Positions 861-64,000 of a stretch of DNA of 64,000 nt are shown in pieces. This stretch comes from Nemertoderma westbladi (Eukaryota > Animalia > Xenacoelomorpha). The stretch's first letter is position 1. Each line of letters opens with the position of its first letter. The stretch spans positions 1 through 64,000 of the forward strand of contig JAUCBJ010001812.1 in the NCBI GenBank assembly GCA_032718475.1, given 5' to 3'. The position numbers and the translations under genes are program-made. Below the pieces are notes generated by a model. That model was not told where the DNA came from. It saw nothing but the letters and a program-made list of their open reading frames with translations, and did no database searches.

Positions 861-3800
861 GTACAGTCGAACACCTACCGTGTGGGTTGGTACCTAACTA
901 GGTACCGGTACAGCCGAACACCTACCGTGTGGGTTGGTACCTAACTAGGTACCGGTACAGCCTAACACCTACCGTGTGGGTTGGTACCTAACTAGGTACC
1001 GGTACAGCCTAACACCTACCGTGTGGGTTGGTACCTAACTAGGTACCGGTACAGCCTAACACCTACCGTGTGGGTTGGTACCTAACCAGGTACCGGTACA
1101 GCCTAACACCTACCGTGTGGGTTGGTACCTAACCAGGTACCGGTACAGCCTAACACCTACCGTGTGGGTTGGTACCTAACTAGGTACCGGTACAGCCTAA
1201 CACCTACCGTGTGGGTTGGTACCTAACTAGGTACCGGTACAGCCTAACACCTACCGTGTGGTCTGGTACCTAACTAGGTACCGGTACAGCCTAACACCTA
1301 CCGTGTGGTCTGGTACCTAACTAGGTACCGATACAGCCTAACACCTACCGTGTGGTCTGGTACCTAACCAGGTACCGGTACAGCCTAACACCTACCGTGT
1401 GGGTTGGTACCTAACTAGGTACCGGTACAGCCTAACACCTACCGTGTGGTCTGGTACCTAACTAGGTACCGGTACAGCCTAACACCTACCGTGTGGTCTG
1501 GTACCTAACTAGGTACCGATACAGCCTAACACCTACCGTGTGGTCTGGTACCTAACCAGGTACCGGTACAGCCTAACACCTACCGTGTGGTCAGGTACCG
1601 GTACAGCCTAACACCTACAGTGTGGATTGGTTCCTAACTAGGTACCGGTACAGCCGAACACCTACCGTGTGGGTTGGTACCTAACCAGGTACCGGTACAG
1701 CCTAACACCTACCGTGTGGGTTGGTACCTAACTAGGTACCGGTACTGCCTAACACCTACCGTGTGGGTTGGTACCTAACTAGGTACCGGTACAGCCGAAC
1801 ACCTACCGTGTGGGTTGGTACCTAACCAGGTACCGGTACAGCCTAACACCTACCGTGTGGGTTGGTTCCTAACTAGGTACCGGTACAGCCGAACACCTAC
1901 CGTGTGGGTTGGTATCTAACTAGGTACCGGTACAGCCGAAAACCTACCGTGTGGGTTGGTACCTAACCAGGTACCGGTACAGCCTAACACCTACCGTGTG
2001 GGTTGGTACCTAACCAGGTACCGGTACAGCCTAACACCTACCGTGTGGGTTGGTACCTAACTAGGTACCGGTACAGCCTAACACCTACCGTGTGGGTTGG
2101 TACCTAACTAGGTACCGGTACAGCCTAACACCTACCGTGTGGTCTGGTACCTAACTAGGTACCGGTACAGCCTAACACCTACCGTGTGGTCAGGTACCGG
2201 TACAGCCTAACACCTACAGTGTGGATTGGTTCCTAACTAGGTACCGGTACAGCCGAACACCTACCGTGTGGGTTGGTACCTAACTAGGTACCGGTACAGC
2301 CTAACACCTACCGTGTGGTCAGGTACCGATACAGCCTAACACCTACCGTGTGGTCAGGTACCGATACAGCCTAACACCTACCGTGTGGTCAGGTACCGGT
2401 ACAGCCTAACACCTACAGTGTGGATTGGTTCCTAACTAGGTACCGGTACAGCCGAACACCTACCGTGTGGGTTGGTACCTAACTAGGTACCGGTACAGCC
2501 TAACACCTACCGTGTGGTCTGGTACCTAACTAGGTACCGGTACAGCCTAACACCTACCGTGTGGTCAGGTACCGGTACAGCCTAACACCTACAGTGTGGA
2601 TTGGTTCCTAACTAGGTACCGGTACAGCCGAACACCTACCGTGTGGGTTGGTACCTAACTAGGTACCGGTACAGCCTAACACCTACCGTGTGGTCAGGTA
2701 CCGATACAGCCTAACACCTACCGTGTGGTCTGGTACCTAACCAGGTACCGGTACAGACTAACACCTACCGTGTGGTCAGGTACCGGTACAGCCTAACACC
2801 TACAGTGTGGATTGGTTCCTAACTAGGTACCGGTACAGCCGAACACCTACCGTGTGGGTTGGTACCTAACCAGGTACCGGTACAGCCTAACACCTACCGT
2901 GTGGGTTGGTACCTAACTAGGTACCGGTACTGCCTAACACCTACCGTGTGGGTTGGTACCTAACTAGGTACCGGTACAGCCGAACACCTACCGTGTGGGT
3001 TGGTACCTAATCAGGTACCGGTACAGCCTAACACCTACCGTGTGGGTTGGTTCCTAACTAGGTACCGGTACAGCCGAACACCTACCGTGTGGGTTGGTAT
3101 CTAACTAGGTACCGGTACAGCCGAAAACCTACCGTGTGGGTTGGTACCTAACCAGGTACCGGTACAGCCTAACACCTACCGTGTGGGTTGGTACCTAACC
3201 AGGTACCGGTACAGCCTAACACCTACCGTGTGGGTTGGTACCTAACTAGGTACCGGTACAGCCTAACACCTACCGTGTGGTCTGGTACCTAACTAGGTAC
3301 CGGTACAGCCTAACACCTACCGTGTGGGTTGGTACCTAACTAGGTACCGGTACAGCCTAACACCTACCGTGTGGTCTGGTACCTAACTAGGTACCGATAC
3401 AGCCTAACACCTACCGTGTGGTCTGGTACCTAACCAGGTACCGGTACAGCCTAACACCTACCGTGTGGGTTGGTACCTAACTAGGTACCGGTACAGCCTA
3501 ACACCTACCGTGTGGGTTGGTACCTAACTAGGTACCGGTACAGCCTAACACCTACCGTGTGGGTTGGTACCTAACTAGGTACCGGTACAGCCTAACACCT
3601 ACCGTGTGGGTTGGTACCTAACCAGGTACCGGTACAGCCTAACACCTACCGTGTGGGTTGGTACCTAACCAGGTACCGGTACAGCCTAACACCTACCGTG
3701 TGGGTTGGTACCTAACTAGGTACCGGTACAGCCTAACACCTACCGTGTGGGTTGGTACCTAACCAGGTACCGGTACAGCCTAACACCTACCGTGTGGGTT

Positions 3801-6800
3801 GGTACCTAACTAGGTACCGGTACAGCCTAACACCTACCGTGTGGGTTGGTACCTAACTAGGTACCGGTACAGCCTAACACCTACCGTGTGGGTTGGTACC
3901 TAACCAGGTACCGGTACAGCCTAACACCTACCGTGTGGGTTGGTACCTAACCAGGTACCGGTACAGCCTAACACCTACCGTGTGGGTTGGTACCTAACTA
4001 GGTACCGGTACAGCCTAACACCTACCGTGTGGGTTGGTACCTAACCAGGTACCGGTACAGCCTAACACCTACCGTGTGGGTTGGTACCTAACTAGGTACC
4101 GGTACAGCCTAACACCTACCGTGTGGGTTGGTACCTAACCAGGTACCGGTACAGCCTAACACCTACCGTGTGGGTTGGTACCTAACTAGGTACCGGTACA
4201 GCCTAACACCTACCGTGTGGGTTGGTACCTAACTAGGTACCGGTACAGCCTAACACCTACCGTGTGGGTTGGTACCTAACCAGGTACCGGTACAGCCTAA
4301 CACCTACCGTGTGGGTTGGTACCTAACTAGGTACCGGTACAGCCTAACACCTACCGTGTGGGTTGGTACCTAACTAGGTACCGGTACAGCCTAACACCTA
4401 CCGTGTGGGTTGGTACCTAACCAGGTACCGGTACAGCCTAACACCTACCGTGTGGGTTGGTACCTAACTAGGTACCGGTACAGCCTAACACCTACCGTGT
4501 GGGTTGGTACCTAACTAGGTACCGGTACAGCCTAACACCTACCGTGTGGGTTGGTACCTAACTAGGTACCGGTACAGCCTAACACCTACCGTGTGGGTTG
4601 GTACCTAACTAGGTACCGGTACAGCCTAACACCTACCGTGTGGGTTGGTACCTAACTAGGTACCGGTACAGCCTAACACCTACCGTGTGGGTTGGTACCT
4701 AACTAGGTACCGGTACAGCCTAACACCTACCGTGTGGGTTGGTACCTAACTAGGTACCGGTACAGCCGAACTCCTACTGTGTTGTGGGTTGGTACCTAAC
4801 TAGGTACCGGTACAGCCTAACACCTACCGTGTGGGTTGGTACCTAACTAGGTACCGGTACAGCCGAACACCTACCGTGTGGGTTGGTACCGGTACCTAAC
4901 TAGGTACCGGTACAGCCTAACACCTACCGTGTGGGTTGGTACCTAACTAGGTACCGGTACAGCCTAACACCTACCGTGTGGGTTGGTACCTAACTAGGTA
5001 CCGGTACAGCCGAACACCTACCGTGTGGGTTGGTACCTAACTAGGTACCGGTACAGCCTAACACCTACCGTGTGGGTTGGTACCTAACTAGGTACCGGTA
5101 CAGCCTAACACCTACCGTGTGGGTTGGTACCTAACTAGGTACCGGTACAGCCTAACACCTACCGTGTGGGTTGGTACCTAACTAGGTACCGGTACAGCCT
5201 AACACCTACCGTGTGGGTTGGTACCTAACTAGGTACCGGTACAGCCTAACACCTACCGTGTGGGTTGGTACCTAACTAGGTACCGGTACAGTCGAACTCC
5301 TACTGTGTTGTGGGTTGGTACCTAACTAGGTACCGGTACAGTCGAACTCCTACTGTGTTGTGGGTTGGTACCTAACTAGGTACCGGTACAGCCTAACACC
5401 TACCGTGTGGGTTGGTACCTAACTAGGTACCGGTACAGCCGAACACCTACCGTGTGGGTTGGTACCTAACTAGGTACCGGTACAGCCTAACACCTACCGT
5501 GTGGGTTGGTACCTAACTAGGTACCGGTACAGCCGAACACCTACCGTCGTACCGGCGCCTCCCTCGGTACCTAACTAGGTACCGGTACAGCCGAACACCT
5601 ACCGTGTGGGTTGGTACCTAACCTAGGTACCGGTACAGCCTAACACCTACCGTGTGGGTTGGTACCTAACTAGGTACCGGTACAGCCGAACACCTACCGT
5701 GTGGGTTGGTACCTAACTAGGTACCGGTACAGCCTAACACCTACCGTGTGGGTTGGTACCTAACTAGGTACCGGTACAGCCGAACACCTACCGTGTGGGT
5801 TGGTACCTAACCAGGTACCGGTACAGCCTAACACCTACCGTGTGGGTTGGTACCTAACTAGGTACCGGTACTGCCTAACACCTACCGTGTGGGTTGGTAC
5901 CTAACTAGGTACCGGTACAGCCGAACACCTACCGTGTGGGTTGGTACCTAACTCAGGTACCGGTACAGCCTAACACCTACCGTGTGGGTTGGTACCTAAC
6001 TAGGTACCGGTACAGCCGAACACCTACCGTGTGGGTTGGTACCTAACTAGGTACCGGTACAGCCGAACACCTACCGTGTGGGTTGGTACCTAACCAGGTA
6101 CCGGTACAGCCTAACACCTACCGTGTGGGTTGGTACCTAACCAGGTACCGGTACAGCCTAACACCTACCGTGTGGGTTGGTACCTAACTAGGTACCGGTA
6201 CAGCCTAACACCTACCGTGTGGGTTGGTACCTAACTAGGTACCGGTACAGCCTAACACCTACCGTGTGGGTTGGTACCTAACTAGGTACCGGTACAGCCT
6301 AACACCTACCGTGTGGTCTGGTACCTAACTAGGTACCGATACAGCCTAACACCTACCGTGTGGTCTGGTACCTAACCAGGTACCGGTACAGCCTAACACC
6401 TACCGTGTGGGTTGGTACCTAACTAGGTACCGGTACAGCCTAACACCTACCGTGTGGGTTGGTACCTAACTAGGTACCGGTACAGCCTAACACCTACCGT
6501 GTGGGTTGGTACCTAACTAGGTACCGGTACAGCCTAACACCTACCGTGTGGGTTGGTACCTAACTAGGTACCGGTACAGCCTAACACCTACCGTGTGGGT
6601 TGGTACCTAACCAGGTACCGGTACAGCCTAACACCTACCGTGTGGGTTGGTACCTAACTAGGTACCGGTACAGCCTAACACCTACCGTGTGGGTTGGTAC
6701 CTAACTAGGTACCGGTACAGCCTAACACCTACCGTGTGGGTTGGTACCTAACTAGGTACCGGTACAGCCTAACACCTACCGTGTGGGTTGGTACCTAACT

Positions 6801-9800
6801 AGGTACCGGTACAGCCTAACACCTACCGTGTGGGTTGGTACCTAACTAGGTACCGGTACAGCCTAACACCTACCGTGTGGGTTGGTACCTAACCAGGTAC
6901 CGGTACAGCCTAACACCTACCGTGTGGGTTGGTACCTAACTAGGTACCGGTACAGCCTAACACCTACCGTGTGGGTTGGTACCTAACTAGGTACCGGTAC
7001 AGCCTAACACCTACCGTGTGGGTTGGTACCTAACTAGGTACCGGTACAGCCTAACACCTACCGTGTGGGTTGGTACCTAACCAGGTACCGGTACAGCCTA
7101 ACACCTACCGTGTGGGTTGGTACCTAACTAGGTACCGGTACAGCCTAACACCTACCGTGTGGGTTGGTACCTAACTAGGTACCGGTACAGCCTAACACCT
7201 ACCGTGTGGGTTGGTACCTAACCAGGTACCGGTACAGCCTAACACCTACCGTGTGGGTTGGTACCTAACTAGGTACCGGTACAGCCTAACACCTACCGTG
7301 TGGGTTGGTACCTAACTAGGTACCGGTACAGCCTAACACCTACCGTGTGGGTTGGTACCTAACCAGGTACCGGTACAGCCTAACACCTACCGTGTGGGTT
7401 GGTACCTAACTAGGTACCGGTACAGCCTAACACCTACCGTGTGGGTTGGTACCTAACTAGGTACCGGTACAGCCTAACACCTACCGTGTGGGTTGGTACC
7501 TAACTAGGTACCGGTACAGCCTAACACCTACCGTGTGGGTTGGTACCTAACTAGGTACCGGTACAGCCTAACACCTACCGTGTGGGTTGGTACCTAACTA
7601 GGTACCGGTACAGCCTAACACCTACCGTGTGGGTTGGTACCTAACTAGGTACCGGTACAGCCTAACACCTACCGTGTGGGTTGGTACCTAACTAGGTACC
7701 GGTACAGCCGAACACCTACCGTGTGGGTTGGTACCTAACTAGGTACCGGTACAGCCTAACACCTACCGTGTGGGTTGGTACCTAACTAGGTACCGGTACA
7801 GCCGAACACCTACCGTGTGGGTTGGTACCTAACTAGGTACCGGTACAGCCTAACACCTACCGTGTGGGTTGGTACCTAACTAGGTACCGGTACAGCCTAA
7901 CACCTACCGTGTGGGTTGGTACCTAACTAGGTACCGGTACAGCCTAACACCTACCGTGTGGGTTGGTACCTAACTAGGTACCGGTACAGCCTAACACCTA
8001 CCGTGTGGGTTGGTACCTAACTAGGTACCGGTACAGCCTAACACCTACCGTGTGGGTTGGTACCTAACTAGGTACCGGTACAGCCTAACACCTACCGTGT
8101 GGGTTGGTACCTAACTAGGTACCGGTACAGCCTAACACCTACCGTGTGGGTTGGTACCTAACTAGGTACCGGTACAGCCTAACACCTACCGTGTGGGTTG
8201 GTACCTAACTAGGTACCGGTACAGCCTAACACCTACCGTGTGGGTTGGTACCTAACTAGGTACCGGTACAGCCTAACACCTACCGTGTGGGTTGGTACCT
8301 AACTAGGTACCGGTACAGCCTAACACCTACCGTGTGGGTTGGTACCTAACTAGGTACCGGTACAGCCGAACACCTACCGTGTGGGTTGGTACCTAACTAG
8401 GTACCGGTACAGCCTAACACCTACCGTGTGGGTTGGTACCTAACTAGGTACCGGTACAGCCTAACACCTACCGTGTGGGTTGGTACCTAACTAGGTACCG
8501 GTACAGCCTAACACCTACCGTGTGGGTTGGTACCTAACCAGGTACCGGTACAGCCTAACACCTACCGTGTGGGTTGGTACCTAACTAGGTACCGGTACAG
8601 CCTAACACCTACCGTGTGGGTTGGTACCTAACTAGGTACCGGTACAGCCTAACACCTACCGTGTGGGTTGGTACCTAACTAGGTACCGGTACAGCCTAAC
8701 ACCTACCGTGTGGGTTGGTACCTAACTAGGTACCGGTACAGCCTAACACCTACCGTGTGGGTTGGTACCTAACTAGGTACCGGTACAGCCTAACACCTAC
8801 CGTGTGGGTTGGTACCTAACTAGGTACCGGTACAGCCTAACACCTACCGTGTGGGTTGGTACCTAACTAGGTACCGGTACAGCCTAACACCTACCGTGTG
8901 GGTTGGTACCTAACTAGGTACCGGTACAGCCGAACACCTACCGTGTGGGTTGGTACCTAACTAGGTACCGGTACAGCCTAACACCTACCGTGTGGGTTGG
9001 TACCTAACTAGGTACCGGTACAGCCTAACACCTACCGTGTGGGTTGGTACCTAACTAGGTACCGGTACAGCCTAACACCTACCGTGTGGGTTGGTACCTA
9101 ACTAGGTACCGGTACAGCCTAACACCTACCGTGTGGGTTGGTACCTAACTAGGTACCGGTACAGCCTAACACCTACCGTGTGGGTTGGTACCTAACTAGG
9201 TACCGGTACAGCCTAACACCTACCGTGTGGGTTGGTACCTAACTAGGTACCGGTACAGCCTAACACCTACCGTGTGGGTTGGTACCTAACTAGGTACCGG
9301 TACAGCCTAACACCTACCGTGTGGGTTGGTACCTAACTAGGTACCGGTACAGCCTAACACCTACCGTGTGGGTTGGTACCTAACTAGGTACCGGTACAGC
9401 CTAACACCTACCGTGTGGGTTGGTACCTAACTAGGTACCGGTACAGCCTAACACCTACCGTGTGGGTTGGTACCTAACTAGGTACCGGTACAGCCTAACA
9501 CCTACCGTGTGGGTTGGTACCTAACTAGGTACCGGTACAGCCTAACACCTACCGTGTGGGTTGGTACCTAACTAGGTACCGGTACAGCCTAACACCTACC
9601 GTGTGGGTTGGTACCTAACTAGGTACCGGTACAGCCTAACACCTACCGTGTGGGTTGGTACCTAACTAGGTACCGGTACAGCCTAACACCTACCGTGTGG
9701 GTTGGTACCTAACTAGGTACCGGTACAGCCTAACACCTACCGTGTGGGTTGGTACCTAACTAGGTACCGGTACAGCCTAACACCTACCGTGTGGGTTGGT

Positions 9801-12800
9801 ACCTAACCAGGTACCGGTACAGCCTAACACCTACCGTGTGGGTTGGTACCTAACTAGGTACCGGTACAGCCTAACACCTACCGTGTGGGTTGGTACCTAA
9901 CTAGGTACCGGTACAGCCTAACACCTACCGTGTGGGTTGGTACCTAACCAGGTACCGGTACAGCCTAACACCTACCGTGTGGGTTGGTACCTAACTAGGT
10001 ACCGGTACAGCCTAACACCTACCGTGTGGGTTGGTACCTAACTAGGTACCGGTACAGCCTAACACCTACCGTGTGGGTTGGTACCTAACCAGGTACCGGT
10101 ACAGCCTAACACCTACCGTGTGGGTTGGTACCTAACTAGGTACCGGTACAGCCTAACACCTACCGTGTGGGTTGGTACCTAACTAGGTACCGGTACAGCC
10201 TAACACCTACCGTGTGGGTTGGTACCTAACTAGGTACCGGTACAGCCTAACACCTACCGTGTGGGTTGGTACCTAACTAGGTACCGGTACAGCCTAACAC
10301 CTACCGTGTGGGTTGGTACCTAACTAGGTACCGGTACAGCCTAACACCTACCGTGTGGGTTGGTACCTAACTAGGTACCGGTACAGCCTAACACCTACCG
10401 TGTGGGTTGGTACCTAACTAGGTACCGGTACAGCCGAACACCTACCGTGTGGGTTGGTACCTAACTAGGTACCGGTACAGCCTAACACCTACCGTGTGGG
10501 TTGGTACCTAACTAGGTACCGGTACAGCCGAACACCTACCGTGTGGGTTGGTCCGGTACCTAACTAGGTACCGGTACAGCCTAACACCTACCGTGTGGGT
10601 TGGTACCTAACTAGGTACCGGTACAGCCTAACACCTACCGTGTGGGTTGGTACCTAACTAGGTACCGGTACAGCCTAACACCTACCGTGTGGGTTGGTAC
10701 CTAACTAGGTACCGGTACAGCCTAACACCTACCGTGTGGGTTGGTACCTAACTAGGTACCGGTACAGCCTAACACCTACCGTGTGGGTTGGTACCTAACT
10801 AGGTACCGGTACAGCCTAACACCTACCGTGTGGGTTGGTACCTAACTAGGTACCGGTACAGCCTAACACCTACCGTGTGGGTTGGTACCTAACTAGGTAC
10901 CGGTACAGCCTAACACCTACCGTGTGGGTTGGTACCTAACTAGGTACCGGTACAGCCGAACACCTACCGTGTTGTGGGTTGGTACCTAACTAGGTACCGG
11001 TACAGCCGAACACCTACCGTGTGGGTTGGTACCTAACTAGGTACCGGTACAGCCTAACACCTACCGTGTGGGTTGGTACCTAACTAGGTACCGGTACAGC
11101 CTAACACCTACCGTGTGGGTTGGTACCTAACTAGGTACCGGTACAGCCTAACACCTACCGTGTGGGTTGGTACCTAACTAGGTACCGGTACAGCCTAACA
11201 CCTACCGTGTGGGTTGGTACCTAACTAGGTACCGGTACAGCCTAACACCTACCGTGTGGGTTGGTACCTAACTAGGTACCGGTACAGCCTAACACCTACC
11301 GTGTGGGTTGGTACCTAACTAGGTACCGGTACAGCCTAACACCTACCGTGTGGGTTGGTACCTAACTAGGTACCGGTACAGCCTAACACCTACCGTGTGG
11401 GTTGGTACCTAACTAGGTACCGGTACAGCCTAACACCTACCGTGTGGGTTGGTACCTAACTAGGTACCGGTACAGCCGAACACCTACCGTGTGGGTTGGT
11501 ACCTAACTAGGTACCGGTACAGCCTAACACCTACCGTGTGGGTTGGTACCTAACTAGGTACCGGTACAGCCTAACACCTACCGTGTGGGTTGGTACCTAA
11601 CTAGGTACCGGTACAGCCTAACACCTACCGTGTGGGTTGGTACCTAACTAGGTACCGGTACAGCCTAACACCTACCGTGTGGGTTGGTACCTAACTAGGT
11701 ACCGGTACAGCCTAACACCTACCGTGTGGGTTGGTACCTAACTAGGTACCGGTACAGCCTAACACCTACCGTGTGGGTTGGTACCTAACTAGGTACCGGT
11801 ACAGCCTAACACCTACCGTGTGGGTTGGTACCTAACTAGGTACCGGTACAGCCTAACACCTACCGTGTGGGTTGGTACCTAACTAGGTACCGGTACAGCC
11901 GAACACCTACCGTGTGGGTTGGTACCTAACTAGGTACCGGTACAGCCTAACACCTACCGTGTGGGTTGGTACCTAACTAGGTACCGGTACAGCCTAACAC
12001 CTACCGTGTGGGTTGGTACCTAACTAGGTACCGGTACAGCCTAACACCTACCGTGTGGGTTGGTACCTAACTAGGTACCGGTACAGCCTAACACCTACCG
12101 TGTGGGTTGGTACCTAACTAGGTACCGGTACAGCCTAACACCTACCGTGTGGGTTGGTACCTAACTAGGTACCGGTACAGCCTAACACCTACCGTGTGGG
12201 TTGGTACCTAACTAGGTACCGGTACAGCCTAACACCTACCGTGTGGGTTGGTACCTAACTAGGTACCGGTACAGCCTAACACCTACCGTGTGGGTTGGTA
12301 CCTAACTAGGTACCGGTACAGCCTAACACCTACCGTGTGGGTTGGTACCTAACTAGGTACCGGTACAGCCTAACACCTACCGTGTGGGTTGGTACCTAAC
12401 TAGGTACCGGTACAGCCTAACACCTACCGTGTGGGTTGGTACCTAACTAGGTACCGGTACAGCCTAACACCTACCGTGTGGGTTGGTACCTAACTAGGTA
12501 CCGGTACAGCCTAACACCTACCGTGTGGGTTGGTACCTAACTAGGTACCGGTACAGCCTAACACCTACCGTGTGGGTTGGTACCTAACTAGGTACCGGTA
12601 CAGCCTAACACCTACCGTGTGGGTTGGTACCTAACTAGGTACCGGTACAGCCTAACACCTACCGTGTGGGTTGGTACCTAACTAGGTACCGGTACAGCCT
12701 AACACCTAACGTGTGGGTTGGTTTGGTACCTAACTAGGTACCGGTACAGCCTAACACCTACCGTGTGGGTTGGTACCTAACTAGGTACCGGTACAGCCTA

Positions 12801-12956
12801 ACACCTACCGTGTGGGTTGGTACCTAACTAGGTACCGGTACAGCCTAACACCTACCGTGTGGGTTGGTACCTAACTAGGTACCGGTACAGCCTAACACCT
12901 ACCGTGTGGGTTGGTACCTAACTAGGTACCGGTACAGCCGAACACCTACCGTGTGG
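861..12956 (-). repeat. 47-bp tandem array (~255-260 units) containing the SLC25A36 5' splice donor
   Basis: Plus-strand consensus cctaacacctaccgtgtgggttggtacctaactaggtaccggtacag. On the minus strand it reads CCACACG|GTAGGTGTT..., continuous with the exon end at 12950-12956. Some shortened 35-bp variants occur at ~1580-2790. Confidence 0.97.
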
Positions 12957-13224
12957 ATATGTGCAGAAGGAAGCGATATTTTTACTGCACATGGCAGCGA
13001 GCATAAACATGGCGAAATCTGTCCCAGTCCGCGTCTGTTTAATCGAGTCCTCGTCGTCTCGAGTAAGGATAGACCTTTTTATCTTCTCATATATAAAGAA
13101 ATGTATCACGGTCTCGGAAATCCCGAGATAGGATGCACTGATCCCTCGGAACAACGACCGGGGTCCCTCGAAACGCACAATGTCCCGCACACAGTGCAAG
13201 GAGGCCAGTCGGGAGTTACGGAAA
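12950..13224 (-). CDS. SLC25A36: Internal coding exon (275 nt) of SLC25A36-like carrier
   Basis: Acceptor tttctttcag|T, donor CACG|gtaggt. Translates FRNSRLASLHCVRDIVRFEGPRSLFRGISASYLGISETVIHFFIYEKIK...DFAMFMLAAMCSKNIASFCTYPH, including the family-typical SASYxGISETVIHFxIYE. Confidence 0.95.
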
Positions 13225-14301
13225 CTGAAAGAAATTAATTAAATATTAGGGGATAATTATATTTTATGCGTAAATTTAATACTAAATATATATATAACAA
13301 ACAATACTTTTGCTATTGAATATAGTTTCAGTTACAGTTTCTTTTAACTGTAATCTACAAGCTAAGCGTGATGGGTCTCAACCCTATTTAGAAAATATAC
13401 CTATGCAGATGATGGTTACCAAAGGTTACTAACTAATAATTTAAACAGGCTAAGGAAAATTGACAGTATCAACAATGTGACACTTAAGTGACTGTCGAAT
13501 AAATAGATCATACGCTAGGTAAAAGTAAGTTATCGAATGTATGAAACAAGTATGTAATCGATTTTTCGCGCCTCCGTAGGCAAACATAAAAAATAGACTC
13601 CGTCGTGGTTCTGATTTAAAAATGTAATAATCACTACACAATTATTCCCTTTTTCCCATCGTAATATTTATCTCCGATTATATCCAATATTACGACATAC
13701 TTCCATCCCAGACATCCTTAGCCGGCCTCACCCACCAACTCTAACCAATATTACCGGCTACTCCCCTACGAATCATTGCAATCCAATAAAGGAGGTAACC
13801 ACACAACCTCCCTCCTTTCTCTCATTGGCCCCTTAATATGCCAACCTCACCCACCTATTACTCTAACCCAGTTATTAATAAAGGAATAATTGATTACCTC
13901 TAAACTCTATTGCCGTTCATCAATAATTGGTTATTGGTCAGTCAAACCTAGGCCATGGTCAAACAACCACGTATTAATCATATTTACATGGGTTGAACGA
14001 AAAAACACTGCACAAGAAAGACAAACTCTGTTTAGGTGATAATTAGGGGTCAATTTCATATTGACCCCACACCGGGTTTAAAAGGGGCCACATTTGGATG
14101 GTAAAGTCAGTCCCAAAAAACCAGCCTTATAGTTAGTTACTACTTTACACACAAGTATGTAAATAGTTATTTACATACTGTAATAATTGAAAACCTCCCA
14201 GTAACGTGTTTTTTACTTATCGTGCTTACATAATTAAATCAATTACCTCACATTGTACACTGTACACAGGTAGCCCAAACTGTTACCATGATAACACTTA
14301 C

Positions 14302-14368
14302 CTGTCGTCCAATTGAAGACGAGTTTTTACCATCCAGATGGGGTTGGTGACTGTCACTGTAATGAAAC
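14302..14368 (-). CDS. SLC25A36: Internal coding exon (67 nt) of SLC25A36-like carrier
   Basis: Acceptor cttcttccag|GT, donor GACAG|gtaagt. Translates FITVTVTNPIWMVKTRLQLDD, the carrier signature with the PIW variant typical of SLC25A33/36. Phases fit both neighbouring exons. Absent from the ORF track. Confidence 0.93.
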
Positions 14369-14603
14369 CTGGAAGAAGTTAAAAAGTTATTAATTAAAAT
14401 AATTTATAAAATTAAATAATTTAGGATAATTATAATGGTTATTTTACATTTATTAACCAAATGAGAGGGCAATTGGTCAACAAGCCGAAGCTTATGGGAG
14501 CTCTCTTGCCGACTAATAAGGTCCATAATCACATATGGGCACTTCCTTCGAGGTTGGTTAGTTCTTCCAGATAAACTAGGCCACCCAGCAGCTGTAATAG
14601 ATA

Positions 14604-14730
14604 TGGGGCCGAGCACAATGATGTCACGCTTTTTTTGACGATTTTCAACCCCCCCCCCCCCCCCCCGTGTCACACTCTGGTTCACGAATTTTATAACCCC
14701 CTCCCTCCTTGAACGTGTCACAAAAAATAC
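14604..14730 (+). mobile_element. Probable end fragment of a non-autonomous DNA transposon (GGGCC...tgatgtcacgc...poly-C...tgtcac)
   Basis: The layout resembles termini of poly-C-containing invertebrate MITEs. A related poly-C+tgtcaca piece recurs at ~14992-15026. No partner inverted repeat was found. Confidence 0.3.
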
Positions 14731-16616
14731 CCAGTATAGGTGATAAAAAATGTTAAATTTGAAATTATTATGTTATTAAAACTAAATATTAATACTTCAT
14801 TAATTCAGCTGCACACAATGACTAAACAAGGAAGACATCCCACATATTGAGTCCAGTCAATGTGGTGTTCTTAGAACTAACAATTCATCACATCGATTCG
14901 CGATTACTGGAATAGATTTCACGTCGGCTGTTGATGTTGGTGTGAATTTTATTTGTTCACCAAAGTGCTATTGTGACATCACAAGTATAGCTACCCCCCC
15001 CCCCCCCCATGTCACAAACGTCACAAATAATAATAAAAAATTAAAAACCGACTAAGTTCTAAAATCACCATTCAAGATGTTCGTTTTACCTACAGACCTA
15101 CAGACTATTTTTGCTCAAAAATAATATAATTATTAATTACAATCGATATATTTTCACAGATCTGTGTCATAATTGGACCCAATAGTCCTCCACTGAGCGC
15201 ACACTTGTTCGTTTACTTGTTATTGTTGGGTTGGCCCCGGTTTAATTTCATCAAAGATATACTGAGGTATTTACCCTTCTAACATTTGGCGACAGACAGA
15301 CACGTGTTGTATTGGAAATACAGAGACAAGAAATAAATCTAAACTATAGTTACAAAAACGGAAACTTTTCCTCACCGAAGAAATTACTTTCGTTCACATT
15401 TCAGAGATTTTTAAAAAATGTAATCGTTTCAAATTTTGCCTGACACCTACCTAACCTTATATATATTTAAAAAACAATTAAAATTCAATTTAACTAACAT
15501 AATTAATTGTAATAGTCGATATTAATAAAGTCCTATTTGAAATTGAATTGCGGGCCTAATGCTAGAGACACTTTTAAAGATAATACTGTCGTTATAGAAT
15601 GCTGGACTGAAATATTTTGGATAAACTTTCAGTTTCAGTCCCAAATCAAGGTGCCCCCCCTCCGCAGTCTAGTGGTGCCATGTGGTGCCATGTGCGCCTA
15701 TGACTGGAGTAATTTATATGTTATCATCCTATAGAACTCGCTCCTTCATTAAGAAAATTTTTAAACAAAATATATTTAGTCATATAAAGCAATGGTGAAA
15801 AATAATTAAACGATTAAAATACATATAAAAGATAATTAGTGTGGAAATTCATCAAAACGAATAACCAACAGCAATTCATATCTGTACCCCTTCTTTACGA
15901 AATGCTGACAATATGAAATTATAATAATATTGTAAACCATACAATACATATTATCACAACACAATTAAACAATACAATTAATTATAAACCATATAAATTA
16001 AACACATAAAAACTTAATAATATCCTAACAGTGTAAGTTTGTCAGATAGGAGGGACTTTCAGTTTCAATGCAAACAAAATTCACCCTTCTCCAACATCTC
16101 ATTATTCGCAAAAATAAAACTGTAAACTGTTCTATTGACTTTAGATTATTGTTTTGGTTATAATAACGTGCCAGTGTAACGTGCTCCTAAAAAAATTGTT
16201 AATTTAACATTGAGTGAGATGAGATTTGCGTCGAGTTCCCCACCCCCGTCTCAAGTAGTATGTACTTGTGTATTGAGACTCAACATAATAATATTTACAT
16301 TGGCTGTTGATAAATCATTGGATGAATAAAGAATTCATAATAATAAAAACTAATGTAACAACCAATAATATGAAACTGTATTGCTAATACAATTTAAACG
16401 AACAATAAATTAACTTATATAGACAATTTATTTTCAGTTAACTAATTGGAACTACCTATTAATTTCCCAAAACAAAAAGAATAAGAAGATATACAATAAT
16501 TGCCACTGTTACATTTCAACTGTTATGAAAAGGCATTAAAGATTAATAATGTTACAAATAAATACCGCGGTTTTGAAGTTAGATTAAGCATCCTTAAGTA
16601 AGTATAAGTATAATCC

Positions 16617-17120
16617 TGCACAACTCAAGTCACCCCCACCCTACAACTCAATCACTAACTCCCCACCCTACAACCCATCACCCACTCTACAAACCCTCAC
16701 CCTACAACCCATCACCCACTCTACGCAACCCCTCACACCTCACCCTACCAACTCCATCCCCTCACTCCCCACCCTACAACCCAACCAACCCCGCACTCAC
16801 TCCACTCCCTACAACCCCTCACCCCCACCCTACAACCCATCCACCCCGCACTCTCTCCACCCCTCACCCCTCACTAACTCCCCACCCTACAACCCCTCAC
16901 CCCCACCCAGCAACCCAACCAACCCCTTACAAACTCCCCGCCCTACAAACCCTCACCCTGCAACGCAACCAACCCCCCCCCCCCCCCACCCTACAACACA
17001 GACAACCCCTCACCCTACCAACCCCACATTTACCCCACATCTACCTACCACTCCCGACCCTACAACCCCACCAACCCCTCACTAACTCCCGACCCTACAA
17101 CCCCACCAACCCCTCACTAA
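16617..17120 (-). repeat. Degenerate C-rich (minus strand G-rich) ~35-bp tandem repeat derived from the RDH stop-codon region
   Basis: Perfect duplication actcccgaccctacaaccccaccaacccctcacta at 17050-17084 and 17085-17119 (stop codon at 17095-17097). Decaying ccctacaaccc...cctcac copies continue down to ~16617. Confidence 0.85.
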
Positions 17121-18003
17121 CAACCCACAACCGCCTCGCTTCCTCCCTATCCCTCCCGTAAGCCGAAGCCCTAGCCAACCTACAATCCCCGTAGTACCCA
17201 CCGGACACCAACCCAGACGCCAACGCGCAATGAACCGAGGTCTGGGCGCCCTGCTCGGGTGTCTTCATGACAGCTCGAAGGGGCCACCCGAGCACCGGCA
17301 TCCCGAGAACCGAATACCCAGCTATATGTCTACCCAATTCGGTCTTTACAGCCCCAGGATGAACTGCAAAAGTCGACACATTGGTACCTTTCAACCTTTC
17401 TGATAACTCCAAAGTAAACAACACATTAGCTAACTTGCTCCTACTGTAAGCTTCGAATTTATTATAACTATTTACTAAATGAATGTCGTTCAACTGTAAC
17501 CCGTATAAACAATGCCCCTGGGCCATTGAAGCCACGTTAATTACTCTGCAGTCACTACGAGTCGATTTCATTAGATTCAATAGAAGATTGGTGAGTAGGA
17601 AGTGCCCCAGATGATTGACACCTAGATGCAACTCGAAACCGTCTACAGTTTCTAGTCTTGGGACCATCATAACCCCGGCGTTATTTATTAGTAAATCCAG
17701 TCGCGTTTCCGACTTTAAAATGTTTGACGCGAATTCTCGAATGGATTCCATCGACGCTAAATCGATTCGACGGTGTTGTATCTCAGGGTTACCAGTTGTT
17801 TCACGCAGTTCGCGGGCCGCTGTCTCACCCCGCTGGTCGTCACGGCAACCCAGTATTAGTTTAGCGCCTTTAGCGGCGAGTATCCGCGCAGTCGCACGGC
17901 CGAGTCCGGTGTTGGCCCCGGTTATTATCGCGGTTTTACCGTCCAACCTGCCGCTGCAGTGACACACACCACCGGCGAAGTAGTTACGTAACCAGTCGAA
18001 CAT
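17095..18003 (-). CDS. Intronless retinol dehydrogenase 11/12/13/14-like short-chain dehydrogenase/reductase (302 aa), nested in an SLC25A36 intron
   Basis: Intact ORF with SDR motifs TGANTGLG (TGxxxGxG), NNAG, HLGHFLLTNLLL, catalytic YSRSK (YxxxK), VHPG and KTPEQGAQT. N-terminus YFAGGVC...LDGKTAIITG is typical of RDH12/13-like proteins. Confidence 0.93.
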   Translation of the reverse strand: MFDWLRNYFAGGVCHCSGRLDGKTAIITGANTGLGRATARILAAKGAKLILGCRDDQRGETAARELRETTGNPEIQHRRIDLASMESIREFASNILKSETRLDLLINNAGVMMVPRLETVDGFELHLGVNHLGHFLLTNLLLNLMKSTRSDCRVINVASMAQGHCLYGLQLNDIHLVNSYNKFEAYSRSKLANVLFTLELSERLKGTNVSTFAVHPGAVKTELGRHIAGYSVLGMPVLGWPLRAVMKTPEQGAQTSVHCALASGLVSGGYYGDCRLARASAYGRDREEARRLWVVSEGLVGL

Positions 18004-18379
18004 AGCGACGGATGGATATTAATAAACCATTGCTCACAAAGTCAGTTAAAATAACTTGTGTGCCAACAGCCAACATGTACCAGTTACTGCTACCGCTACC
18101 GGTACCGTGATGTATACCAGTAGGCACTCCCAGACAGCCCCATATAATAATACACTGATCCTCAGCGCGGTACTACAGTACTACAGGACAGTGTAGTAGG
18201 CTTTAGGCAACTACGTAATTGACACAAATATGATATTTAAATTAAAACTTAACGATTTTATCTAGGGATTGGAAGTATCTGTCTGGTCTAGAGGTAAACA
18301 GAATAAAAGAAAGGTTTAAATTATTGTATTTATTATTATAATGGTACCGGTACTGACGTACTGCTGATAGTCTGATAAG

Positions 18380-19095: not shown

Positions 19096-19705
19096 TAGTA
19101 GATTATACTTAAAACTCGGCATGAGGCTAGACTCATAAACTCACATATTCGGATTAAACATTTCACAAATTAATTGTATATTTCAAGGTCTGAAATCTAT
19201 TTTAAAGCGAAAAATTGTAATAATTTTTTCACAATTCGAGTAGAATTAATAAAAATAATTGTAATTAGGCTTAAAGTCAGAATTCATATTTTTGAATACA
19301 TTTCTGAGGAAGGAAAGCGTAATATATTTTTTCTGCTGACGTTTTTATATTTTATAATATGAATGGGTATTAAATTGTAATTTCATATATTTTCGCTATG
19401 TTCCATGTAATTTCATGGAAAGTAAAATATAACAGCAATAATACTTTAGATCTATCATAAGGCGGTGCATTAACCAAGAAATATGAGAATCAGAATTGTC
19501 AATTAAAATCAAAACAAATATACAATCAGATAGTGTTCGTTGAAATCACTAATGGTAGAAAATATAAATACCACATCTTAATCCTAATTGAATCTTTAAT
19601 ATTATAGTGGATAAAATAAAAAACTGGAATACTTTATCGCCAACATATCATATCAATTGTTTTGTGTCATAGATTTCTGCTCTGATATTATGTACTGAAT
19701 AATAA

Positions 19706-20110
19706 GTACTATTACTAACTACAGCACTAGGTCGAGCGAACTCGGACAGTGGAAATGAGATCCTTCCAGGATTCCCGATTCTCCATAGTTGTCGCAATTT
19801 CGTTTCTCCCAAGTTCAGTATCCCTTTCAAGTTGATCTATATATGTTATGGCCGGTCGTCCACGACTACGCTTTCCATGAGTTGGTTGCCAGAAAAGTAG
19901 ATCTGGTATGACCTCGTCTTAACTTCTCCAGCAGTGCCCACTGAATCTTAATCTGCGTTCACGGAGGGTGGTTGATACAGGTGGTATTGTACCATAAAGC
20001 TCGGCGTTTGTCATGTGTTGTCTCCAGCTGATGTTTAGGGCTGCCCTTAGTATAGTCTTGTGAATCAACCATCAATTCATTGTTCGAGTGATTTCGTCAG
20101 TGTCCAACAC
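19706..20110 (-). mobile_element. 5'-truncated, degenerate RTE-clade non-LTR retrotransposon (3' end of ORF)
   Basis: Manual translation: WTLTKSLEQ*IDG*FTRL/LRAALNISWRQHMTNAELYGTIPPVSTTLRERRLRFSGHCWRS*DEVIPDLLFWQPTHGKRSRGRPAITYIDQLERDTELGRNEIATTMENRESWKDLISTVRVRST*. These are typical RTE-like C-terminal motifs, with stops and a frameshift, followed by a short TAG-rich tail. Confidence 0.85.
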
Positions 20111-21740: not shown

Positions 21741-21799
21741 ACGATAAAAAAAGAAACCGTTGATTATTGTAATGGTTCTTATTTTATAATTTATATATA

Positions 21800-22078
21800 A
21801 TATCGTAGCTTAAGTGTCATAAGTCAAAAATTGTAATTGTTCAGGAGAGCCTATAAAAGATATAGAGAGATATGGGGCCTTTCTGCAGTAAAATAGTGTC
21901 AACTGGTATATAATAGGGCTTTACTTTACCACGCAATAAGCATCACTTCCTATTGGTTAAATGTTTAAATCTCCACCAGCTGATAGAGCATGTCTTAAAG
22001 TGTGGAAATTAATAAAAAAAGGTAAAAAGCGACAAAAATCGACTAAGTAGGGCCTTTATGACACTTAAGCTACAATAT
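21800..22078. mobile_element. MITE-like non-autonomous element with terminal inverted repeats
   Basis: gtagcttaagtgtcataa (21805-21822) is the exact reverse complement of ttatgacacttaagctac (22056-22073). The match extends a few more bases with one mismatch into TA-rich flanks. Confidence 0.65.
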
Positions 22079-22373
22079 ATAATATGCAATTCACTTAATA
22101 TATATAACCGGTGTACACTATATGGGATAACTAAGTTATTTTTGGCACATTAATATTGAATAACCCGCATTAAACCCCACCGACTAGCGGCACTGGCTGT
22201 TTCTATCAAACACGTCCCAGATGCAGTAAATGGGACCTCTTTAGAAAATAATATTAATTACTACCGCGGAAAAATGCTTGTACTATTAGTAGAGCGGGGA
22301 GGTGGAAGCAAATAATATAATATAATAAAAAGTAACAAAAACTATTGTTATATATCCAATAACAAACACACAC

Positions 22374-22430
22374 GTGATGGTTAGAGCGTCAGAAATCCAA
22401 CCTTGAGTTACCTAGTTCGATCCCACCTGG
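22374..22430 (+). other. tRNA-derived SINE head or tRNA pseudogene fragment
   Basis: A-box/D-arm-like tggttagagcg and B-box gttcgatcc at tRNA-like spacing. No complete cloverleaf or acceptor stem. Confidence 0.35.
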
Positions 22431-22665: not shown

Positions 22666-22766
22666 TTGCAATGGAAGCGCTAGCAATATGTACTGGAGAA
22701 GTGTCGGGTTCTAGAATCTGGTTGAAATGGTTATGGCAGGAAGCGTAAAGTCCGAAGTAGATAGCC
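22666..22766 (-). CDS. SLC25A36: Internal coding exon (101 nt) of SLC25A36-like carrier; upstream exons are outside the window
   Basis: Acceptor ttctattcag|G, donor GCAA|gtgagt. Translates AIYFGLYASCHNHFNQILEPDTSPVHIASASIA (compare RAIYF...PDSTQVHMISA in vertebrate SLC25A36). In frame with the 67-nt exon. Confidence 0.92.
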
Positions 22767-25700
22767 CTGAATAGAATGCAATTAATTTAGGTAGAATAAA
22801 GTCCGAAGTAGATAGCCCTGAATAGAATGCAATTAATTTAGGTAGAATAAAGTCCGAAGTAAATAGCCCTGAATAGAATGCAATTAATTTAGGTAGAATA
22901 AAGTCCGAAGTAGATAGCCCTGAATGGAATGCAATTAATTTCGGTAGAATAAAGTCCGAAGTAGATAGCCCTGAATAGAATGCAATTAATTTAGGTACAA
23001 TTAATTTAGGTAGAATAAAGTCCGAAGTAGATAGCCCTGAATGGAATGCAATTAATTTCGGTAGAATAAAGTCCGAAGTAGATAGCCCTGAATAGAATGC
23101 AATTAATTTAGGTAGAATAAAGTCCGAAGTAGATAGCCCTGAATGGAATGCAATTAATTTCGGTAGAATAAAGTCCGAAGTAGATAGCCCTGAATAGAAT
23201 GCAATTAATTTAGGTAGAATAAACTCCGAAGTAGATAGTGCTGAATGGAATACAATTAATTTAGGTAGAATAAAGTCCGAAGTAGATAGTGCTGAATGGA
23301 ATGCAATTAATTTCGGTAGAATAAAGTCCGAAGTAGATAGCCCTGAATAGAATGCAATTAATTTAGGTAGAATAAACTCCGAAGTAGATAGTGCTGAATG
23401 GAATACAATTAATTTAGGTAGAATAAAGTCCGAAGTAGATAGTGCTGAATGGAATGCAATTAATTTAGGTAGAATAAAGTCCGAAGTAGATAGTGCTGAA
23501 TGGAATGCAATTAATTTAGGTAGAATAAAGTCCGAAGTAGATAGCCCTGAATGGAATACAATTAATTTAGGTAGAATAAAGTCCGAAGTAGATAGTGCTG
23601 AATGGAATGCAATTAATTTAGGTAGAATAAAGTCCGAAGTAGATAGTGCTGAATGGAATGCAATTAATTTAGGTAGAATAAAGTCCGATTAGATAGTGCT
23701 GAATGGAATGCAATTAATTTAGGTAGAATAAAGTCCGATTAGATAGTGCTGAATGGAATGCAATTAATTTAGGTAGAATAAAGTCCGAAGTAGATAGTGC
23801 TGAATGGAATGCAATTAATTTAGGTAGAATAAAGTCCGAGGTAGATAGTGCTGAATGGAATGCAATTAATTTAGGTAGAATAAAGTCCGAGGTAGATAGT
23901 GCTGAATGGAATGCAATTAATTTAGGTAGAATAAAGTCCGATTAGATAGTGCTGAATGGAATGCAATTAATTTAGGTAGAATAAAGTCCGATTAGATAGT
24001 GCTGAATGGAATACAATTAATTTAGGTAGAATAAAGTCCGAGGTAGATAGTGCTGAATGGAATGCAATTAATTTAGGTAGAATAAAGTCCGAGGTAGATA
24101 GTGCTGAATGGAATGCAATTAATTTAGGTAGAATAAAGTCCGATTAGATAGTGCTGAATGGAATACAATTAATTTAGGTAGAATAAAGTCCGAAGTAGAT
24201 AGTGCTGAATGGAATGCAATTAATCTAGATAGAATAAACTCCGAAGTAAATAGTGCTGAATGGAATGCAATTAATTTAGGTAGAATAAACTCCGAAGTAG
24301 ATAGTGCTGAATGGAATGCAATTAATCTAGATAGAATAAAGTCCGAAGTAGATAGTGCTGAATGGAATGCAATTAATTTAGGTAGAATAAAGTCCGAAGT
24401 AGATAGCCCTGAATGGAATGCAATTAATTTAGGTAGAATAAAGTCCGAAGTAGATAGTGCTGAATGGAATGCAATTAATTTAGGTAGAATAAACTCCGAA
24501 GTAGATAGTGCTGAATGGAATGCAATTAATCTAGATAGAATAAAGTCCGAAGTAGATAGTGCTGAATGGAATGCAATTAATTTAGGTAGAATAAAGTCCG
24601 AAGTAGATAGTGCTGAATGGAATGCAATTAATTTAGGTAGAATAAAGTCCGAAGTAGATAGTGCTGAATGGAATGCAATTAATTTAGGTAGAATAAACTC
24701 CGAAGTAGATAGTGCTGAATGGAATGCAATTAATCTAGATAGAATAAAGTCCGAAGTAGATAGTGCTGAATGGAATGCAATTAATCTAGATAGAATAAAG
24801 TCCGAGGTAGATAGTGCTGAATGGAATGCAATTAATTTAGGTAGAATAAAGTCCGATTAGATAGTGCTGAATGGAATGCAATTAATTTAGATACAATAAA
24901 GTCCGATTAGATAGTGCTGAATGGAATGCAATTAATCTAGATAGAATAAAGTCCGAAGTAGATAGTGCTGAATGGAATGCAATTAATTTAGGTAGAATAA
25001 ACTCCGAAGTAAATAGTGCTGAATGGAATGCAATTAATTTAGGTAGAATAAAGTCCGATTAGATAGTGCTGAATGGAATGCAATTAATCTAGATAGAATA
25101 AAGTCCGATTAGATAGTGCTGAATAGAATGCAATTAATTTAGGTAGAATAAAGTCCGATTAGATAGTGCTGAATGGAATGCAATTAATTTAGGTAGAATA
25201 AAGTCCGAAGTAGATAGTGCTGAATGGAATGCAATTAATTTAGGTAGAATAAAGTCCGAAGTAGATAGTGCTGAATGGAATGCAATTAATCTAGATAGAA
25301 TAAAGTCCGAAGTAGATAGTGCTGAATGGAATGCAATTAATCTAGATAGAATAAAGTCCGATTAGATAGTGCTGAATAGAATGCAATTAATTTAGGTAGA
25401 ATAAAGTCCGATTAGATAGTGCTGAATGGAATGCAATTAATTTAGGTAGAATAAAGTCCGAAGTAGATAGTGCTGAATGGAATGCAATTAATCTAGATAG
25501 AATAAAGTCCGAAGTAGATAGTGCTGAATGGAATGCAATTAATCTAGATAGAATAAAGTCCGATTAGATAGTGCTGAATGGAATGCAATTAATTTAGATA
25601 GAATAAAGTCCGAAGTAGATAGTGCTGAATGGAATGCAATTAATTTAGGTAGAATAAACTCCGAAGTAAATAGTGCTGAATGGAATGCAATTAATTTAGG

Positions 25701-61700: not shown

Positions 61701-64000
61701 TAGATAGTGCTGAATGGAATGCAATTAATTTAGGTAGAATAAAGTCCGATTAGATAGTGCTGAATGGAATGCAATTAATCTAGATACAATAAAGTCCGAA
61801 GTAGATAGTGCTGAATGGAATGCAATTAATCTAGATAGAATAAAGTAAGAAGTAGATAGCCCTGAATGGAATGCAATTAATTTAGATACAATAAAGTACG
61901 ATTAGATAGATAGTGCTGAATGGAATGCAATTAATTTAGATACAATAAAGTACGATTAGATAGTGCTGAATGGAATGCAATTAATTTAGGTAGAATAAAG
62001 TCCGAGGTAGATAGTGCTGAATGGAATGCAATTAATTTAGGTAGAATAAAGTCCGAAGTAGATAGTGCTGAATGGAATGCAATTAATTTAGGTAGAATAA
62101 AGTACGATTAGATAGTGCTGAATGGAATGCAATTAATTTAGGTAGAATAAAGTCCGAAGTAGATAGTGCTGAATGGAATGCAATTAATTTAGGTAGAATA
62201 AAGTCCGAAGTAGATAGTGCTGAATGGAATGCAATTAATTTAGGTAGAATAAAGTCCGAAGTAGATAGTGCTGAATGGAATGCAATTAATTTAGGTAGAA
62301 TTAAAGTCCGAGGTAGATAGTGCTGAATGGAATGCAATTAATTTAGATAGAATAAAGTCCGATTAGATAGTGCTGAATGGAATGCAATTAATTTAGGTAG
62401 AATAAAGTCCGAAGTAGATAGTGCTGAATGGAATGCAATTAATTTAGGTAGAATAAAGTCCGAAGTAGATAGTGCTGAATGGAATGCAATTAATTTAGGT
62501 AGAATAAAGTCCGAAGTAGATAGTGCTGAATGGAATGCAATTAATCTAGATACAATAAAGTCCGAAGTAGATAGTGCTGAATGGAATGCAATTAATTTAG
62601 GTAGAATAAAGTCCGAAGTAGATAGTGCTGAATGGAATGCAATTAATTTAGGTAGAATAAAGTCCGAAGTAGATAGTGCTGAATAGAATGCAATTAATTT
62701 AGGTAGAATAAAGTCCGAAGTAGATAGCCCTGAATGGAATGCAATTAATTTAGGTAGAATAAAGTCCGATTAGATAGTGCTGAATGGAATGCAATTAATT
62801 TAGATAGAATAAAGTCCGAGGTAGATAGTGCTGAATGGAATGCAATTAATTTAGATACAATAAAGTACGATTAGATAGTGCTGAATGGAATGCAATTAAT
62901 TTAGGTAGAATAAAGTCCGAGGTAGATAGTGCTGAATGGAATGCAATTAATTTAGGTAGAATAAAGTCCGAAGTAGATAGTGCTGAATGGAATGCAATTA
63001 ATTTAGGTAGAATAAAGTACGATTAGATAGTGCTGAATGGAATGCAATTAATTTAGGTAGAATAAAGTCCGAAGTAGATAGTGCTGAATGGAATGCAATT
63101 AATTTAGGTAGAATAAAGTCCGAAGTAGATAGTGCTGAATGGAATGCAATTAATTTAGGTAGAATAAAGTCCGAAGTAGATAGTGCTGAATGGAATGCAA
63201 TTAATTTAGGTAGAATTAAAGTCCGAGGTAGATAGTGCTGAATGGAATGCAATTAATTTAGGTAGAATAAAGTCCGAAGTAGATAGTGCTGAATGGAATG
63301 CAATTAATTTAGGTAGAATAAAGTCCGAAGTAGATAGTGCTGAATGGAATGCAATTAATTTAGGTAGAATAAAGTCCGAAGTAGATAGTGCTGAATGGAA
63401 TGCAATTAATCTAGATACAATAAAGTCCGAAGTAGATAGTGCTGAATGGAATGCAATTAATTTAGGTAGAATAAAGTCCGAAGTAGATAGTGCTGAATGG
63501 AATGCAATTAATTTAGGTAGAATAAAGTCCGAAGTAGATAGCCCTGAATAGAATGCAATTAATTTAGGTAGAATAAAGTCCGAAGTAGATAGCCCTGAAT
63601 GGAATGCAATTAATTTAGGTAGAATAAAGTCCGATTAGATAGTGCTGAATGGAATGCAATTAATTTAGATAGAATAAAGTCCGATTAGATAGTGCTGAAT
63701 GGAATGCAATTAATCTAGATACAATAAAGTCCGAAGTAGATAGTGCTGAATGGAATACAATTAATTTAGGTAGAATAAAGTCCGATTAGATAGTGCTGAA
63801 TGGAATGCAATTAATCTAGATACAATAAAGTCCGAAGTAGATAGTGCTGAATGGAATACAATTAATTTAGGTAGAATAAAGTCCGATTAGATAGTGCTGA
63901 ATGGAATGCAATTAATTTAGGTAGAATAAAGTCCGATTAGATAGTGCTGAATGGAATGCAATTAATTTAGGTAGAATAAAGTCCGATTAGATAGTGCTGA
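22747..64000 (-). repeat. 50/51-bp tandem array (~800 units, runs off the window) containing the SLC25A36 3' splice acceptor
   Basis: First unit on the plus strand is aaagtccgaagtagatagccctgaatagaatgcaattaatttaggtagaat. On the minus strand this is ATTCTACCTAAATTAATTGCATTCTATTCAG|GGCTATCTACTTCGGACTTT, overlapping 20 nt of exon 22666-22766. Confidence 0.97.

Follow-up and report, generated by a model that had tools for sequence, protein, structure and literature searches.

A donor array and an acceptor array, each copied from a splice junction of the same SLC25A33/36-like gene in Nemertoderma westbladi

The 64,000-nt stretch of Nemertoderma westbladi DNA analysed here (contig JAUCBJ010001812.1, positions 1–64,000; hereafter ‘the window’) carries on its minus strand a gene for an SLC25A33/36-like mitochondrial carrier, which hosts two large tandem arrays. 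The unit of one array is a copy of a donor junction of this gene, and the unit of the other a copy of an acceptor junction; together they account for 84% of the gene as far as it is visible. Both are probably ‘mirage’ repeats, copies of pieces straddling the gene’s own junctions that have grown to satellite size and play no part in splicing.

Two arrays built from junctions of one gene

Unique DNA of the locus was present in four sequencing runs: X1, from sample S1; X2 and X4, from sample S2, which belongs to a different study from S1; and X3, labelled ‘DNA?’ and read here as RNA because of its spliced joints. No run listed as RNA was among them, and X5 and X6, with almost none of this DNA, were left aside. 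The arrays, the exons of their host and a microsatellite beside the donor array are as follows.

861–12956, minus strand: donor ‘mirage’ array, 258 full 47-nt units and a 25-nt partial last unit
22746–64000, minus strand: acceptor ‘mirage’ array, at least 812 full units of about 51 nt, continuing past the end of the window
22666–22766, minus strand: SLC25A33/36-like exon, 101 nt; spliced X3 contig (22768–22664) and open frame; its acceptor lies in the last 51-bp array unit
14302–14368, minus strand: SLC25A33/36-like exon, 67 nt; Mito_carr E 1e-4, 22.2 bits (cut-off 22.3); positions 1246–1312 of the X3 contig
12950–13224, minus strand: SLC25A33/36-like exon, 275 nt; Mito_carr E 1e-11; its donor lies in the first 47-bp array unit
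307–500, minus strand: last coding exon, including the stop codon; Mito_carr E 4e-8; in frame with the preceding exon, to which it is presumably joined
537–831, strand not assigned: (CCGA)n microsatellite in the last intron, with its last spare donor on one side and its real acceptor on the other

Joined in order (22766–22666, 14368–14302, 13224–12950 and 500–307), the exons encode 211 residues in a single open frame; in an alignment with the fish SLC25 protein P0001, 109 of 208 residues are identical. They are thus intact and in frame, as the sequence-only reading of this DNA had held, and three of them are found spliced in the X3 contig. Over the four exons the Pfam Mito_carr model scored two above its cut-off and one just below it, and left one without a match, while a search with the longest exon gave two matches among 33 candidates, one named as SLC25 member 36 and the other with an incomplete name. 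The Mito_carr repeats and the closest named matches point to the SLC25A33/36 subfamily, an assignment that, made without a tree, does not choose between SLC25A36 and SLC25A33 orthology. The annotation of P0001 has an insertion precisely between PSR and AIYF, at the intron that holds the acceptor array, which hints at an old intron rather than one newly created by tandem duplication of a proto-splice site; matching exon sizes, 101 and 67 nt, occur in vertebrates. At positions 22688, 22700 and 22714 of the 101-nt exon X2 and X3 differ from the window, X1 and X4, and these differences represent two rather divergent haplotypes.

Tandem Repeats Finder reported the 47-bp array at 861–12956 with 258.5 copies and 96% matches; full units of both arrays were counted by wrap-around alignment. 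Each donor unit comprises the last 7 bases of the exon at 13224–12950 and the first 40 bases of the intron (boundary 12950/12949), in agreement with the anatomy first proposed. Of the full units, 257/258 retain GT and 249/258 carry the authentic 9-base donor unchanged. Donor units differ from one another by 3.7% on average, and the 150 closest to the exon are nearly identical (3–5 variants per 50); the first and last units have C at column 16, where 222/258 units have A. The final 22 bases of the unit (12910–12931, minus strand) contain a 7–8 bp fold-back and short palindromes. The partial last unit lacks them, and they may have arisen as a templated insertion that separates two copies of a 25-nt piece. 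Beyond the array, the microsatellite ends 36 nt from the last acceptor, and with it the last spare donor lies approximately 380 nt from that acceptor, instead of approximately 85 nt. Minus array and microsatellite, the last intron would measure only about 105 nt.

For the 51-bp array, which runs from 22746 to the window end, Tandem Repeats Finder gave about 808 copies in its main row and 94% matches. The unit measured as 30 intron and 21 exon bases (boundary 22767/22766); the sequence-only reading had rightly seen a copy of the acceptor junction here, although its division into 31 and 20 nt was displaced by one base, which fits either side. AG is retained in 798/812 units. The first two bases of the exon, GG, are found in just 26/812, most units having CA, and just 8/812 agree with the authentic site throughout −30 to +2, while 297/812 have gained a second AG some 20 bases upstream. 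Most acceptor units are therefore inexact copies of the junction, a correction to that reading; the approximately 250 extra donors and 800 or more extra acceptors that had been predicted agree with the counts of 258 and at least 812. Mean pairwise difference between acceptor units is 5.9%. There are 89 distinct units, with many variants arranged in higher-order patterns; the nine units closest to the acceptor retain GG, whereas an interior variant at +1 is present in 785/812. In both arrays, then, the end units keep ancestral letters and the interior is homogenised. The low pairwise differences indicate that growth of the arrays was recent.

The acceptor array is longer than the window displays. 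Its depth in X1 corresponds to approximately 1.7–4.8 times the visible part, or some 1400–3900 units and 70–200 kb, a rough figure given that depth is not copy number, that the matching strings were hand-chosen and that X1 may be the window’s own source. At 22809 one X2 contig departs from the array and runs on for at least 255 other bases; judged by eye, the first 30 of these agree with the unit at about 22 of 31 positions, with CAG|GG preserved on the sense strand. This exit sequence, from one unplaced contig, resembles an outermost unit in decay, such as a junction duplication should leave at its far end. The acceptor unit had no matches in metagenome contigs.

That the two arrays are unrelated in sequence was confirmed: the score of donor against acceptor unit was equalled in 166 of 1000 shuffles, the units have no 16-mer in common, and no 16-mer of either occurs elsewhere in the window. 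Kinship of the two units was accordingly ruled out.

Both arrays are present in the DNA of two samples. The tandem joint from 12957 back to 12911, 47 bases at the donor edge, was found in DNA runs X1, X2 and X4; in X1 and X2 a unique contig stops 30 bases into the donor array, and at the acceptor edge unique contigs of two haplotypes stop 30–51 bases into the array (those of X1 and X4 identical to the window, that of X2 departing from it at 6 bases and by 2 gaps over 296 bases). Array contigs of X1 reached depths of up to 2.1e4, compared with approximately 12–33 for its unique contigs, and when depth was normalised to how often the commonest matching string occurs in the window, six of seven array contigs gave 56.5–60.6 (the seventh gave 23, its match being uncertain). 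Summed depth of the donor array, 2100–3200 against 12–26 on unique DNA, fits its copy number only to the order of 100. Such agreement between the X1 variant mix and the window, the edges recovered in two samples and separate studies, and the 89 distinct acceptor units in higher-order patterns make it extremely improbable that the arrays, or their length, are artefacts of assembly, even though assemblers can mis-count in a stretch as uniform as the exon-proximal 150 donor units, all contigs came from short reads, and the agreement with X1 may be agreement with the window’s own source.

Splicing of the host gene

A 2204-nt contig of X3 (depth 290) carries three exons back to back, at approximately 1145–1245, 1246–1312 and 1313–1587. 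It skips the 1077-nt intron through a joint at 13224–14302 with CT..AC ends, which none of the other three runs shows. The contig stops exactly at 12950 though the alignment target extended 45 array bases further, and therefore the first donor was used; at the other side it departs from the window at the acceptor nearest the exon and goes on into an upstream exon, whose sequence, read by eye as GPNLVGVIPA-R, corresponds to GPNLVGVAPS-R of P0001. On the 101-nt exon its two-base overhangs at each end fit either side. In this one contig of one run, the main product uses the first donor and the last acceptor. The boundaries used are those contained in the array units, and the claim that each array consists of copies of a junction of the same gene is upheld by both unit anatomy and splicing. 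Assembled contigs drop rare forms, and X3 displays the main product only; no X3 contig lay on the 45 and approximately 80 array bases examined at the two edges, where a lack of cover is no evidence of absence.

Use of the nearest spare sites would end the reading frame. Spare acceptors 1–3 lead to an in-frame TAA, which lies in the unit adjoining the exon and would be included by any acceptor further upstream; with spare donors 1–3 the frame stops at codon 157 of 211, and this stop falls 15 bases ahead of the last junction for the second donor and at least 62 for later ones. An alternative protein is therefore impossible. Most such mis-spliced products would be removed by nonsense-mediated decay.

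The spare sites themselves vary as the remainder of the units does. Three of nine columns were variable at donor positions −3 to +6, compared with 19/38 elsewhere (p 0.47), and 9/20 at acceptor positions −20 to −1, compared with 17/31 elsewhere (p 0.57). Across all motif-column tests (p 0.47–1.0) there was no sign of selection for or against spare sites, at the low power that 22 and 26 variable columns allow.

Nested frame and other repeats of the window

The 8.3-kb intron contains an intact frame on the strand of the host gene, and across its stop codon a third repeat.

17095–18003, minus strand: intronless RDH12/13-like frame of 302 amino acids, nested in the 8.3-kb intron; Pfam adh_short E 3e-33
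16623–17121, minus strand: third repeat, overlapping the RDH stop codon; an exact pair of 35-nt copies (27 coding and 8 downstream bases) followed by decayed ones

Among the matches listed, the RDH frame had up to 54% identity to named RDH11/12/13-like proteins and at most 52% to Branchiostoma proteins; intact and lying on the host’s strand, it is possibly a retrocopy. The third repeat is G-rich, with about ten decayed copies after the exact pair, and its stop-spanning motif was counted 10 times, where shuffles predict 0.16. It resembles a mirage array, but one placed at a coding end and involving no splice site. Seeding of repeats thus extends beyond splice signals. Nearby, a 582-nt X3 contig (depth 22) lies on intronic 15726–16261 and could be the 3′ end of the RDH transcript, unspliced RNA or another transcript.

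Several smaller features were observed. Two short peptides at 20071–19730 (minus strand), without a Pfam match, resemble the broken 3′ end of an RTE-type retrotransposon. Segments 14140–14171 and 16109–16188, which have very high depth in the DNA runs (bins 2e4–2e5) and are also present in X3, are ends of abundant interspersed repeats. At 21793–22085, two 30-nt inverted repeats separated by 233 nt, to which a segment at 13478–13512 is related, possibly mark a small non-autonomous transposon. An Rfam scan of 1–24000 gave no matches, and a search for orthologous loci in metagenome contigs returned two weak 22-residue matches (L001, L002), which were not used.

Precedents, origin and meaning of the arrays

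Comparison with published systems, which holds as far as the cited accounts describe them, begins with amphioxus. ‘Mirages’ are tandem duplications of 5′ or 3′ exon–intron boundaries with units of 10–160 bp, in which spare AG/GT persist, splicing is normal and end units stay outside homogenisation (PMC3087553); described cases are Adh3, the globins BflGb6 and BflGb9, troponin C and PGBD5 (PMC3087553, PMC3902484), the second account naming Adh, troponin C and PGBD5 (PMC3902484). The arrays here share each of these properties: head-to-tail units of 47 and 51 bp, within the published range, which span a real boundary, at a 5′ as well as a 3′ junction; retained GT and AG; regular splicing (in one X3 contig); and a concerted interior from which the boundary units are left out. 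They differ in scale, with 258 and at least 812 units over 12 kb and more than 41 kb against 3–6 units in BflGb6, and in having higher-order patterns as satellites do, and the sequence is not amphioxus-like (the RDH identities above). The arrays therefore belong to a described type and are exceptional in size.

Human donor-spanning minisatellites in F7 IVS7 (37 bp, 5–9 units), 6-16, CBS IVS13, LMNB2 and PDGF (PMC1557585) likewise have the real donor in the first unit and identical spare donors after it. They number 5–26 units, no acceptor array is described in those genes, and 6-16 and CBS also use two spare sites, a use not seen here in the one contig. Closer in size is the VNTR (variable number tandem repeat) of human ABCA7 intron 18, with up to approximately 427 units and 10.7 kb (PMC5954066), which begins at an exon’s donor and comes close to the 12.1 kb of the donor array. 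Its unit begins at GT and has no exon bases, whereas the donor unit here has seven; retention of one unit and exon skipping are documented for it; and the acceptor array is at least four times longer. The satellites in giant introns of Drosophila Y genes are simple repeats and are not known to derive from a gene’s own junctions. In the Y genes kl-3 and kl-5 satellites fill giant introns at megabase scale (PMC6508621, PMC11207136), and there as here tandem repeats form most of the span of an expressed gene, although here they are locus-born junction copies. A literature search that covered mainly open-access main texts found no published junction-spanning array of more than approximately 427 units. 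The statement of the sequence-only reading that precedents were donor-only and had far fewer copies did not survive this comparison, given published acceptor mirages (PMC3087553) and the ABCA7 array (PMC5954066). Its suggestion of a lineage-specific process found no support as a novelty, given that mirages are known in both donor and acceptor form.

The probable history of the arrays would begin with small tandem duplications across exon–intron junctions, which unequal exchange, slippage or gene conversion could then have expanded to satellite size. Tolerance may follow from intron length, if the spliceosome, where introns are long, favours whichever sites lie nearest across the exon, along with the donor that is transcribed first. 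It may also follow from the spare copies having just 7 or 21 exon bases, and from the acceptor array offering no good donor partner. Rare mis-spliced products would mostly be cleared by nonsense-mediated decay. That the acceptor array neither ratchets nor defines micro-exons follows from the lack of any AGGT on its 41-kb sense strand and of any GT word matching more than 5/9 positions of the donor consensus. Because the exon-centred rule is weaker for acceptors, the short exon piece of each spare unit probably matters as well; Reed and Maniatis (1986) reportedly demonstrated the importance of exon sequence in splice-site choice. Precedent for the donor array is found in F7, LMNB2 and PDGF, where only the first donor is used (PMC1557585), and an exon-centred choice of sites closest across the exon has been described for long introns (PMC9225289).

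Several points weigh against an origin and growth without function. For human acceptors the exon-centred rule is weaker, the upstream preference being only reduced (PMC9225289), and ABCA7 demonstrates that such arrays can alter splicing and expression (PMC5954066). The splicing evidence consists of one assembled contig from one run labelled ‘DNA?’, and leaky use of spare sites may remain compatible with contigs, which drop rare forms; the column test has the low power already given. Moreover, neutrality alone does not explain two large junction arrays in one gene, which exceed uniform chance: a random 47–51-nt seed would span one of the seven visible junctions with a probability of about 0.03, so that under uniform seeding both arrays fall on junctions with a probability of about 0.001, and at least two of the four arrays in the window with about 0.006. 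These figures overstate the case, the window having been picked for this feature.

They nevertheless favour a mutational bias that seeds repeats at exon edges, for example if repair or slippage acts where transcription or splicing pauses, or if repeats creep until an exon stops them. Such a bias, which would add to neutral growth and does not require function, is a tentative possibility as the reason for the arrays, with junction arrays then being the main driver of intron growth here. Three of the four arrays in the window touch a coding edge (donor, acceptor, stop codon), and the amphioxus globin paper, citing several mirage loci, suggests a more general phenomenon (PMC3087553). However, this is a single, selected window; a 47-nt seed touching the last intron, which probably measured only about 105 nt before it grew, spans a junction with a probability of about 0.6; and the units fold no better than shuffles (six folds, z −1.0 to +1.2), so that no common structural trigger is seen. 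A hairpin was also considered as the trigger, the donor unit having a local 7-bp stem, yet none of the six folds beat shuffles.

Far less probable are roles in splicing or expression, some of them suggested by the sequence-only reading. Arrays kept for control of splicing or expression, as U1 or U2AF decoys, as a transcription delay or as a source of unproductive isoforms tuning carrier levels, would account for the retention of GT and AG in nearly all units and for the two haplotypes both running into the acceptor array, and the length of the ABCA7 array correlates with expression and splicing (PMC5954066). In units so young, however, kept motifs are expected; motif columns vary like others, most acceptor copies have drifted at +1/+2, a second upstream AG has arisen in over a third of them, and the nearest spare sites lead to stops that leave no alternative protein, all of which makes such control very unlikely. 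Stepwise removal of the introns (recursive splicing) through the repeated sites can appeal to the two AG|GT words of the donor unit, but upstream of these the pyrimidine share is 0.50–0.55, compared with 0.60–0.75 at the four real acceptors, and the donors that they regenerate match just 5/9 consensus positions. The acceptor array lacks any AG|GT in the sense direction, and this reading is hardly credible.

A broader proposal, held with still more reserve than a local bias, is that repeats in this genome are preferentially seeded at coding edges, as the third repeat at the RDH stop codon suggests, and that a single splice junction can expand into a satellite confined to its locus and reaching 100 kb or more. 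Such growth might even protect itself: in an intron of about 100 nt a spare donor would compete under intron definition, whereas lengthening by the array and the 295-nt microsatellite would bring exon definition and so silence the spare sites.

Neutral mirage repeats, the explanation preferred here, make the locus a known repeat type stretched one to two orders of magnitude beyond the amphioxus globin cases, with donor and acceptor forms together in one expressed, housekeeping-type gene whose correct splicing survives some 250 donors of identical sequence and 800 or more spare acceptors. It is a natural substrate for the study of splice-site choice and of the effect of array length on expression. 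Were junction seeding enriched genome-wide, a count of which the literature search did not find, the locus would matter more. Seeding at coding edges, if true, would mean that splice junctions have a general way of turning into satellites and giant introns, and it would let splice-site choice be tested in nature, in the face of more than 1000 near-identical decoys.

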